From: Candidatus Micrarchaeota archaeon
GTDB lineage: Archaea > Micrarchaeota > Micrarchaeia > Anstonellales > Bilamarchaeaceae
Assembly: GCA_037440825.1 (NCBI GenBank)
Contig: JBBITJ010000005.1
Coordinates: 13,980 to 38,346 of the forward strand
Reading direction: 5' to 3'
DNA length: 24,367 nucleotides
Shown piece after piece: positions 10,524 to 11,787 of this stretch. A program made the position numbers and the translations under genes. How positions within the stretch are numbered: the stretch's first letter is position 1; every line of letters begins with the position of its first letter. The notes beneath the pieces are model-generated. The model saw only the letters and a program-made list of their open reading frames with translations, was not told the DNA's origin and did not search any database.

Positions 10524-10598
10524 TTATATCGGAATAGTGATGTTCTAAATCCTTTAAAACCCTTTTCTACCTAAATATCCTTAGTGGACCCAGGTGAG

Positions 10599-10661
10599 CC
10601 CCGGGTCCCGGGTTTCGAGTTTTGCATTCCAAACTGAAAACCGCAGGCTGGAAACCGCAAA
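10599..10661. repeat. 7-nt-period repeat array upstream of tRNA-Ile
   Basis: ccccggg tcccggg tttcgag ttttgca ttccaaa ctgaaaa ccgcagg ctggaaa ccgcaaa. Confidence 0.7.
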
Positions 10662-10696
10662 TGAAACCCGTTCAACCCAAAAAGCGCCTGCTTTCT

Positions 10697-10927
10697 GGGC
10701 CCGTAGCTCATCCAGGTTAGAGCGATGGTCTTATATGGCGTCCTCTAATACATGTTATTAGATGACTGTCTGAGCTAGCCATAGGTTCGGAGTTCAAATG
10801 TCAGCCCAAGGGGGCAAGCCCCCTTAGTCCGACACCACCCAAACCCCCAAATTTGAGTGGTATCACGTTTCTCGTTTCCGGCAAACCGGAAACTCGAGAC
10901 AGGAAACTGAAATTCTCCGCGGGCCCA
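10697..10927 (+). tRNA. tRNA-Ile(UAU) with two introns: 37/38 (10736-10776, 41 nt) and 59/60 (10799-10913, 115 nt)
   Basis: Acceptor GGGCCCG/CGGGCCC-A, D-stem GCTC/GAGC, anticodon stem ATGGT/GCCAT with loop CT-TAT-A|A, T-stem CGGAG/CTCCG with loop TTCAAA|T. Both junctions form bulge-helix-bulge motifs (central helices CTTA/TGAG and TTCA/TGAA). Confidence 0.93.
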
Positions 10928-10931
10928 ATTT

Positions 10932-10966
10932 TCTTCTGTTTCCAGTCTTCAGTCTCCAGTTTCGCA
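10932..10966. repeat. 7-nt-period repeat array downstream of tRNA-Ile
   Basis: tcttctg tttccag tcttcag tctccag tttcgca. Confidence 0.7.
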
Positions 10967-11013
10967 TGGGGAAAACAGGGGGCGCAGCCAGCAGGAGACA
11001 ACTCCAATTTTTC

Positions 11014-11787
11014 CTACTTGTTTCCCGTTCCGGGTTTCGAGTCCCCGGCTTTCTCCTTCGGCTCCTGCTCCTTGATTATGCCAGCTATGATGTCCTGGTT
11101 GGGCACCTTCTCCACCTGCCTGGGCGCAGGCGGCTGGACCTGAGGAGCGAAAGGCGCCGCAGGCTTCTGCTGCACCTTGGCCGCCTCCTGCCTCTTCCTC
11201 ACGATATAGAATCCATACGCTTGGAGCGCAACTGTGGCGATTCCGAGCCCCACCATCGCTATTTCCGAGATGTTCACGAACGTCTGCCTGCCCACTTTGG
11301 TGAAAAGTCCATTTGCCTGCATTACGAAATGGTAGAACGCGAATATGAACGCCACGTAAGCGAGCCGCTGCACGTTCTTCCAGTTCGGCACGTTTTTCAC
11401 AGCCCAGTCCATGGAAGTCGCAGCTAGAACCACGAATATCACAAGCGCCAGGAGAGCGTAAATTCCGGACTCTATGGCGAGCACGGATTGGAGCTGCCCT
11501 CCATACGTGATCAAGAAAGATATCGCGAAATGCCCGAGCACGAATGCGAACGAGGCGATTCCGACCGCCCTCCTGTGCGCAAGCAGGATCGCGAACTCCT
11601 TGGGCGCGATTATCGCCAGCGGCCCAATCATTAGCGAAGCGCAGAGCAGCAGGAACCCGCCGAGCCCCAGGAACCTCGCGACAGCCGTGGATGGAGGCAC
11701 GTCGAAGAGCGCGTTGTACGCCGCGAGCGCAGCCAATGCGGCAACCATGACCATCCAGAGAAAGCTTCCCTTGTCCATAGATATCAA
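11014..11787 (-). CDS. Ferric reductase-like transmembrane protein (MsrQ/YedZ-STEAP superfamily)
   Basis: About 6 TM helices, HRRAVG, LGHF, LAATS..W, WKNVQRLAY, FYHF. Start either TTG 11787 (overlapping the upstream stop) or ATG 11778. Confidence 0.85.
   Translation of the reverse strand: MISMDKGSFLWMVMVAALAALAAYNALFDVPPSTAVARFLGLGGFLLLCASLMIGPLAIIAPKEFAILLAHRRAVGIASFAFVLGHFAISFLITYGGQLQSVLAIESGIYALLALVIFVVLAATSMDWAVKNVPNWKNVQRLAYVAFIFAFYHFVMQANGLFTKVGRQTFVNISEIAMVGLGIATVALQAYGFYIVRKRQEAAKVQQKPAAPFAPQVQPPAPRQVEKVPNQDIIAGIIKEQEPKEKAGDSKPGTGNK

Follow-up and report, generated by a model that had tools for sequence, protein, structure and literature searches.

A structured repeat at the 5' splice site of a T-loop intron in a Micrarchaeota tRNA-Ile(UAU) gene, with a candidate part in intron gain

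The arrival of protein-spliced introns in archaeal tRNA genes is an unsolved problem. According to the main text of a study of the ARMAN lineage (PMC3239211), ARMAN-2 has a 13-nucleotide (nt) intron between positions 59 and 60 (59/60) of pre-tRNA-Cys(GCA), set in a helix-bulge-helix (hBH) motif, and two introns, at 53/54 and 59/60, in pre-tRNA-Pro(GGG); its splicing endonuclease EndA, of the epsilon2 type, cuts the 59/60 intron in vitro (Fujishima et al. 2011, PMC3239211), and ARMAN genomes use tRNA-Ile(UAU) and have no TiaS (PMC3239211). Here we describe a 24,367-nt stretch of DNA from a Candidatus Micrarchaeota archaeon (contig JBBITJ010000005.1, positions 13,980-38,346, forward strand; termed the window, from whose start our coordinates count), in which a tRNA-Ile(UAU) gene carries two predicted introns, a canonical one at 37/38 and one of 115 nt at 59/60 in the T-loop. 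The locus resembles ARMAN-2 in the 59/60 position, in the relaxed logic of its bulge-helix-bulge (BHB) splice motif, in an EndA of the type solved as PDB 4fz2 and in its tRNA-Ile(UAU), and on the text of PMC3239211 the ARMAN lineage was already known to have introns of this kind at this position, together with such an enzyme and the unusual tRNA. It differs in the length of the intron (115 vs 13 nt) and in its host, the ARMAN-2 tRNA-Ile(UAU) having only a canonical 25-nt intron, and above all in that the intron begins with a cassette of ~51 nt shared with other introns; the main text of PMC3239211, its supplementary tRNA tables aside, mentions none.

Among known systems, the nearest to this shared cassette are the families of cross-isotype introns in the Thermoproteales, in which, as far as the published accounts at hand describe them, closely similar introns likewise occur across tRNA isotypes at BHB-compatible sites. 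A 2010 study by Fujishima in Mol Biol Evol is said to have found such similar introns across tRNA isotypes in Thermoproteales. Both marks of a cross-isotype family are present here, namely similar introns across isotypes and presence or absence among the orthologues of relatives. The differences are that the host belongs to another phylum, that the endonuclease is epsilon2 here and alpha-beta there, that the shared part is a covarying cassette running from the exact 5' splice site with a strong bias to 59/60, and that the cassette also occurs outside introns, rarely with long flank duplications. For the Thermoproteales, the available text of two sources gives no known mechanism of intron transposition (PMC4090602; bioRxiv 10.64898/2026.10.13.758758), and the latter, a 2026 census of Asgard tRNA introns, offers in the same portion no general arrival route. 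A mobile element has been proposed as the source of intron gain in tRNA-Thr(GGU) of Caldiarchaeum subterraneum, where, in the relevant part of that report, a duplicated tRNA fragment flanks an element beside an intron-bearing tRNA, in the manner of the [X][element][X] copies discussed further below; that element is 1.8 kilobases (kb) long and encodes a recombinase, whereas the units here are ~100-130 nt and non-coding (Sugahara et al. 2012, PMC3293823). A literature search, with the supplements of PMC3239211 outside its range, found no repeated intron families or miniature inverted-repeat transposable elements described for Micrarchaeota.

The 5' cassette (module A) is well supported, by comparison across genomes, as a new structured repeat. 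We consider it probable that the tRNA-Ile(UAU) gene holds two introns spliced by EndA and RtcB, that the 59/60 intron is composite, and that its cassette belongs to a mobile, patchily distributed, multi-copy family of intron-like elements; what is said throughout on splicing and mobility is read from DNA. The segment 10792-10850 recurs at 88-98% identity at many sites in relatives. Nineteen copies align to TGTCAGCCCAAGGGGG-loop-CCCCCTTAGTCCGACACCGCCCAAACCCCC, with a loop of 4-22 nt, and in their basal stem eight cells have changed on both sides vs 1.0 in shuffled alignments, a value that none of 500 shuffles reached; the changes run from GC to CG or AU and from UA to AU or CG. When the alignment is widened to 56 hits, including diverged copies from other orders, all five basal pairs covary and the A.C position becomes A-U or G-C, with the 7-base-pair (bp) upper stem, the CCC/AGT internal loop and CCCAAACCCC invariant. 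In every cassette-bearing T-loop intron the last of the three 5' bulge bases is the cassette's invariant T, and one base later comes the covarying stem, at the position of the inner helix. The idea that the cassette mimics a tRNA minihelix, with ACC following a stem, was abandoned: the stem has ~15 layers instead of 12, and the CC pairs within hairpin 2 of the intron.

A covariance model of the cassette (R1) was run on 151 genomes of the order and on a phylum-wide sample of 151 genomes. It found the cassette in 33 of the former, spread over 13 of 45 genera and three of 12 families at 1-10 copies each, and in 18 of the latter, five families of other orders included; two large families of the phylum-wide sample gave none (0 of 71 genomes). 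Contexts were analyzed for 44 distinct copies, and for 16 of these excision of the element yields a tRNA across the junction according to ARAGORN, the hosts being called Ile, Arg, Glu, Gly, Tyr, Phe, Pro, Cys and Ala, with isotype calls uncertain for multi-intron genes. A seventeenth such match (extracted locus L048; L numbers denote such loci) is doubtful, and L020 fits a T-loop intron by hand. Among 13 cassette T-loop introns examined, 12 have a 4-bp central helix (H) and the 3' end TGAA-NN↓T, the arrow marking the splice site here and below. The family extends beyond the T-loop: in one relative (G009; G numbers denote genomes, G000 being the host assembly) the cassette sits in the same register in the canonical 37/38 intron of tRNA-Val, and elsewhere it lies outside introns, directly 3' of a tRNA-Ala gene, upstream of tRNAs or in plain intergenic DNA. 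In G101 it forms the left end of a ~317-nt non-coding repeat (L061 1494-1811, from G101:C73, and other copies); the right-hand 95 nt of this repeat are another conserved, strongly paired unit, and several copies keep one end only.

Three observations lead us to infer mobility: this distribution, the patchy occurrence of the cassette among congeners, and the near-identity of introns from different tRNAs within a single genome. The genes for tRNA-Arg(GCG) and tRNA-Glu(CTC) are intronless in G000, and their orthologues in the congeners G007 and G003 carry 59/60 cassette introns. The congener G003 has two different tRNAs, one of them tRNA-Glu(CTC), whose 59/60 introns match at 235/251 positions over their first 250 nt, with upstream exons matching at 32/68, and the intron of a third tRNA shares 167/181. 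The tRNA-Ile(UAU) site itself varies within the host genus, being occupied by the cassette in two of eight genomes (G000 and G004) and by another dispersed structured element in the remaining six. This second element consists of CCATATCC followed by CTTTTCTTTT-loop-AAAAGAAAAGG and other portions, and G000 contains about six copies of it, in or beside tRNA genes. Because both elements begin exactly at the splice site, the exchange of occupants points to replacement of whole introns rather than to nested insertion. Among the tRNA genes of G000 in or beside which the second element sits is a candidate tRNA at C28:6460-6673 with an 84-nt T-loop intron. A genome-wide scan of G000 for T-loop introns, demanding perfect stems and a TTCRA or TCCRA loop and therefore liable to miss others, gave only tRNA-Ile(UAU) as a clean case, plus one candidate on C28.

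Four features are combined in the cassette family: a sharply bounded structured sequence at the splice site, gain or loss recent enough to fall within a genus, nearly the same copy in more than one tRNA of a single genome, and copies outside introns, some of them flank-duplicated. It is this combination that makes intron gain testable, through population metagenomics, through in-vitro work with an enzyme of solved structure and in the few cultivated Micrarchaeota, and it makes the locus a promising system for studying how such introns are gained.

The evidence that the 59/60 insert is an intron begins with the gene itself. As it stands, the window yields no tRNA by ARAGORN and none by Rfam at the gathering threshold. 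Removal of 10799-10913 by script leaves what ARAGORN reports as a perfect tRNA-Ile(TAT) whose canonical intron measures 41 nt, and removal of both introns leaves a flawless cloverleaf with stems of 7/4/5/5 bp and the anticodon TAT. No second tRNA-Ile(UAU) gene was found in the G000 assembly (875 kb, 45 contigs, 95.6% complete), and ATA is the commonest isoleucine codon, accounting for 86 of the 148 in six open reading frames (ORFs) of the window; since the codon is in such demand and no other copy was found, the transcript presumably has to be spliced. An essential tRNA-Ile(UAU) is here wholly overlooked by standard tRNA finders. The ARAGORN list for G000 has many tRNA species absent or odd (no Thr, Trp or Lys(UUU), and introns of 1.4-2.7 kb), which suggests more tRNA genes with non-canonical or multiple introns.

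The host also encodes the predicted machinery. A 392-amino-acid (aa) EndA in G000 (L036:1207-2385, minus strand) carries the Pfam EndA domains and matches PDB 4fz2 over its full length (residues 3-392, E 2.8e-145), the entry being, according to the text describing it, the three-unit epsilon2 EndA of ARMAN-2 (PMC3488258), and RtcB is encoded as well (484 bits). By homology, the presence in G000 of the EndA type shown to cut 59/60 introns is supported. From these matches and from the in-vitro work on the ARMAN-2 enzyme as set out in PMC3239211, we infer that EndA would cut both introns at BHB motifs and RtcB would join the exons. In the 59/60 motif the T-stem would serve as the outer helix, and T54-A57 would pair with TGAA just before the 3' bulge; the predicted joint of exons 2 and 3 would read ...GAGTTCAAA to TCTCCGCGG..., and that of a circular intron, if one formed, ...CTGAAAT to TGTCAGCCC....

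The predicted BHB comprises a 5-bp outer helix (h), a 4-bp H and bulges AAT and ATT. It comes at little energetic cost, the fold constrained to contain it reaching -49.2 vs -49.6 kcal/mol unconstrained, a difference of 0.4 kcal/mol. In the register first described, the inner helix (h') beyond the 5' bulge has only two pairs (G10800-C10907 and T10801-A10906), and the motif is of the relaxed kind. Taken by itself, the intron has a folding energy of -43.2 kcal/mol (z = -4.76), a stability matched by none of 200 shuffles. The preliminary description of this DNA had given the intron's coordinates, the TTCA/TGAA helix, both bulges and three hairpins, all of which are present in the sequence, and had read the insert as a 59/60 T-loop intron with a BHB-like motif, the counterpart of the 37/38 intron; the ARAGORN cloverleaf, the constrained fold and the epsilon2 type of EndA bear this out, so far as DNA can, and the reading of the insert as an intron is confirmed as right and as ordinary for the lineage.

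Comparison of 15 orthologous tRNA-Ile(UAU) genes, those of all eight genomes of the host genus included, places an insert at the identical boundary, after TTCAAA and before TCTCNG, in 11 (all eight congeneric genomes and three other genera); the genes of four genera have no T-loop insert. The 11 inserts range from 38 to 421 nt, and only that of G004 shares sequence with the intron of G000, over its first 50 nt alone (92%). A 4-bp H can be formed in eight of the 11, by TGAA in two, TGGA in four and TGAG in two, in each case preceding the last two intron bases. Related introns also display the design in a smaller form: in the minimal introns of family f6 (~72-80 nt), the cassette is followed by a second hairpin, in which CCGCCCAAACCC pairs with GGGTTTGCGG as the counterpart of hairpin 2 in G000, and by a tail ending ...CTTTGAAAA↓T, of the type ...TTGAAAA↓T, with neither heptamer repeats nor the third hairpin of the G000 intron. 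Because these minimal introns lack heptamers, the heptamer hairpin of G000 appears to be an addition to an older intron design. On such a scheme the cassette would start exactly at the splice site with its basal stem standing where h' belongs, hairpin 2 would close the 3' part of the cassette, and the heptamer hairpin and tail would be a later addition in this lineage that now carries the TGAA strand.

One step further, it is conceivable, although we would put it at rather less than an even chance, that the cassette is the working end of a mobile, 'splice-ready' non-coding element of Micrarchaeia. The element would bring its own half of the BHB signal, in the form of the inner helix and the last nucleotide of the bulge, and with a short tail complementary to TTCR it would make the universally conserved T-loop a place where the host's endonuclease excises it. 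If so, a splice-ready element could invade essential single-copy tRNA genes harmlessly and replace earlier occupants of the site, and the cassette would be a concrete, sequence-defined agent by which introns arrive in archaeal tRNA genes.

Several observations weigh against the cassette being a mobile, spliceable intron-like element. In the G000 intron h' is discontinuous and the cassette stem pairs with itself, giving a three-way junction rather than a textbook hBHBh', and in three of the 11 orthologous introns (L005, L007 and L008) H has at most three pairs, L005 being poor and the other two having three. A full BHB frame occurs in none of the non-tRNA copies (14 of 280 shifted controls have one), and the notion that every cassette copy is an EndA-excised insert was rejected on this ground. 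R1 finds only one cassette copy in G000, and the FtsY tree leaves unresolved whether the cassette-bearing Ile introns of G000 and G004 are sisters, with support of 68/86 at the key nodes. As to the signs of transposition, there are no systematic terminal inverted repeats at the cassette, the sole 9/10 match lying in a coding region; target duplication is absent in 40 of the 44 copies; the cassette has no linked gene for a transposase, reverse transcriptase or integrase; and no filled and empty pair of sites was found outside tRNA genes, the relatives in the genus of G101 being too divergent for an empty-site search. Finally, selection acting strongly on a functional RNA, and not transfer, could account for the near-identity of cassettes from different orders.

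The last of these points leads to the strongest of the alternatives, by which the cassette is not selfish at all. It would instead be a small RNA with a function, or an RNA motif bound by protein, with tRNA transcripts as its platform for expression and processing, by analogy with the C/D box small RNAs encoded in introns. EndA, RNase P or RNase Z might then release it, perhaps as a circular molecule. The invariant core, and a basal stem that covaries even in copies from other orders, are what such a function would predict, as are the ties of most copies to tRNA genes, whether as introns, as a 3' trailer after tRNA-Ala (L049) or as a leader (L048), and the excess of structure in the 59/60 intron over shuffles. 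A needed RNA would, however, be oddly distributed, the cassette being absent from 118 of the 151 order genomes, close congeners included, and its copy number swinging from 0 to 10. Nor does it resemble known RNAs: an Rfam scan of 10550-11100 at E values up to 10 picked up a tRNA below threshold (18.9 bits) and otherwise only chance matches, with the cassette itself unmatched, and no conserved C/D or H/ACA boxes were seen in the 56-hit alignment. We regard this explanation as unlikely.

A second alternative invokes a single-strand DNA transposon. The ends of IS200/IS605 insertion sequences combine a sequence-invariant hairpin with a variable foot, and these elements insert strand-specifically after a short motif, usually with no target duplication. 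The cassette might be the end hairpin of such an element, with its Y1 HUH transposase, or of a non-autonomous derivative, inserting 3' of a short target such as TTCRAA with no target duplication, so that copies landing in T-loops survive as spliceable. The likeness lies in a hairpin whose loop and stem sequence are invariant above a covarying foot, in the fixed orientation, in a 5' boundary that falls sharply after ..AA (36 of 43 copies have A at -1, and 35 of 43 at -2), and in the 40 copies that lack a target duplication. In G017:C9, moreover, a cassette (L058, 1501-1549) lies 150 nt upstream of a gene for a 146-aa Y1 transposase (1701-2141), which is itself followed by a strong hairpin; this is the only adjacency of cassette and transposase seen. 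Y1_Tnp matches occur in 14 of 33 cassette-positive vs 27 of 118 cassette-negative genomes, the two counts apparently coming from the same samples and related genomes not being independent. Set against these points, no second end with a matching hairpin on the right was found for the cassette, and no transposase was shown to be linked to it; four other tnpA loci have no cassette nearby, and G000, G005, G007, G012, G031 and G039 carry the cassette with no Y1_Tnp match. A PF01797 match is likewise absent from G000 and at least 18 other cassette-positive genomes and present in 14 of the 33. The four copies with flank duplications of 20-40 nt are not a product of such a mechanism, and the upstream logo is dominated by T-loop copies, in which selection and target choice are inseparable. 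Comparison of the G017 tnpA with other tnpA copies showed no DNA similarity, and the ends of an insertion sequence could not be set from it. On balance this account is improbable.

The four copies just mentioned bear on a third explanation, in which the cassette is the scar of a plasmid or virus that an integrase inserted into a tRNA gene, with att duplication and subsequent internal deletion. They have the form [X][element][X], with a direct duplication of 20-40 nt of upstream flank (L018, L026/L047, L033 and L055), and in at least three the duplicated part comes from a tRNA gene (L018, L026 and L055), in keeping with the model that the relevant part of PMC3293823 proposes for intron gain in Caldiarchaeum. 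However, no two of the four share the same X, the element between the repeats is only ~100-130 nt, most copies are unduplicated, no integrase gene lies nearby in the window, and the cassette pattern has no matches in viral contigs, so that this origin is very improbable. L055 duplicates the 5' half of a tRNA-Arg: its upstream copy is a perfect match to the 3' acceptor strand, and the downstream one shows two changes; TATA-like boxes stand ~26 nt before the downstream duplicate in both L047 and L055.

There remains the heptamer repeat on which the preliminary description had centered. Arrays of at least three units of the form RRAACYS number 83 in G000 (GAAACTG, GAGACTG, GAAACCG and similar) vs 0-1 in shuffles; for 15 of these 83 a tRNA gene is no more than 100 nt away, vs 1.2 expected at random; some form inverted pairs, and similar arrays are seen in congeners. 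The proposal that the arrays flanking tRNA-Ile(UAU) form a processing stem was rejected, the leader-trailer duplex (-40.0 kcal/mol) not differing significantly from shuffles (-34.1 +/- 4.5 kcal/mol). The last unit of the intron's own array does contain the TGAA strand, as had been described, and that part of the claim holds; heptamers are absent from the 3' end of eight of the 11 orthologous introns. The survey of relatives for the same terminal heptamer, which had been suggested, finds heptamer units at the 3' end in three of the 11 (G000, G004 and G020), and a heptamer tail also ends the intron of a tRNA-Arg in G007. The description had further proposed that a dispersed heptamer, complementary to the TTCR of the T-loop, created the 3' splice signal and with it the intron by inserting there, and had named an identical boundary with no repeat array in relatives as the finding that would speak against this. 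Although the TGAA strand and 3' bulge do lie within the last unit of a real array, the arrays are genuine dispersed repeats clustered at tRNA genes, and heptamer tails end those few related introns, this is not supported and is the least probable of the origins considered, given that the same boundary occurs without 3' heptamers in eight of 11 orthologues, six of which still offer four pairs to TTCA through TGGA, TGAG or TGAA, that family f6 introns have their cassette and tail without heptamers, and that the intron's 5' boundary is the start of another conserved element. The general idea of a splice signal borne by a repeat may nonetheless hold, by way of a different repeat, the 5' cassette.

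Table 1. Positions of the tRNA-Ile(UAU) gene, its predicted introns and the associated elements. Plain numbers are window coordinates; G, C and L handles refer to other assemblies, sequences and loci; arrows mark splice sites.
Feature	Position	Strand	Basis or remark
tRNA-Ile(UAU) gene, two introns, no encoded CCA	10697-10927	+	ARAGORN on spliced sequence
Exon 1: acceptor 5' strand, D-arm, anticodon stem and loop to A37	10697-10735	+	sequence, ARAGORN
Intron 1, canonical 37/38, 41 nt	10736-10776	+	ARAGORN intron prediction
Intron 1 BHB (predicted): H = CTTA/TGAG; bulges TA↓T and CT↓A			read from sequence
Exon 2: A38, anticodon stem 3' strand, variable loop, T-stem 5' strand, T-loop 54-59 (TTCAAA)	10777-10798	+	
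Intron 2, non-canonical 59/60 T-loop, 115 nt	10799-10913	+	
Exon 3: T60, T-stem 3' strand CTCCG, acceptor 3' strand CGGGCCC, discriminator A	10914-10927	+	
Acceptor half CGGGCCC with discriminator A	10920-10927		
T-stem: CGGAG with CTCCG	10788-10792 with 10915-10919		
Central helix H (predicted): TTCA (T54-A57) with TGAA	10793-10796 with 10908-10911	+	read from sequence
5' bulge AA↓T	10797-10799		
3' bulge AT↓T	10912-10914		
Cassette (module A), ~50-51 nt	10799-10848	+	covariance model R1, 75.4 bits at G000:C5:24778-24827
Cassette parts: T (third bulge nt); basal stem P1; internal loop CCC/AGT	P1: 10800-10804 with 10829-10833		
Cassette parts, continued: invariant 7-bp stem AAGGGGG/CCCCCTT, variable loop, then ACC(G/A)CCCAAACCCC			
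Hairpin 1: AAGGGGG/CCCCCTT	10808-10825	+	
Hairpin 2	10831-10843 with 10852-10864	+	3' part of cassette pairs TTTGAGTGGTATC
Hairpin 3, 2x2 internal loop	10870-10881 with 10886-10899	+	inverted heptamer-type units
Heptamer array CAAACCG GAAACTC GAGACAG GAAACTG (10882-10909) plus AAAT	10882-10913	+	carries H 3' strand and 3' bulge
Upstream heptamer array	10603-10623	-	
Upstream heptamer array	10631-10672	+	by eye
Downstream heptamer array GAAACTG GAGACTG AAGACTG GAAACAG	10936-10963	-	
Second dispersed element, sites in G000	C28:6579-6639; C28:2268-2320; C6:1000-1061; C9:11472-11534; C2:20472-20529; C12:13970-14042		
Second dispersed element, introns in relatives	L003-L007, L010		

The genes flanking the tRNA in the window are housekeeping genes, encoding RadA, FtsY, a Pelota-like protein, an RsmB-like methyltransferase and methionine aminopeptidase, and no mobile-element gene is found among them. 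Two orthologous tRNA-Ile(UAU) genes depart from the common layout: in G005 (L010) heptamer arrays lie within a canonical intron enlarged to ~160 nt, and in G021 (L013) there is no T-loop intron and a 19-nt hairpin is inserted in the variable region. G000 has a second EndA-like ORF of 159 aa with tRNA-intron-endonuclease domains (C6:36246-36497; L037:1468-1947, - strand). Its RtcB lies within a 983-aa open frame (C12:21585-24377; L085, L086) in which the Pfam match is split 1-50 / 46-426, and the RadA proteins of G005 (C5) and G001 (C16) lie within frames of 831 and 807 aa, also with split matches (L081-L084); on this pattern of matches, the RtcB gene of G000 and the RadA genes of G005 and G001 look like intein-bearing genes.

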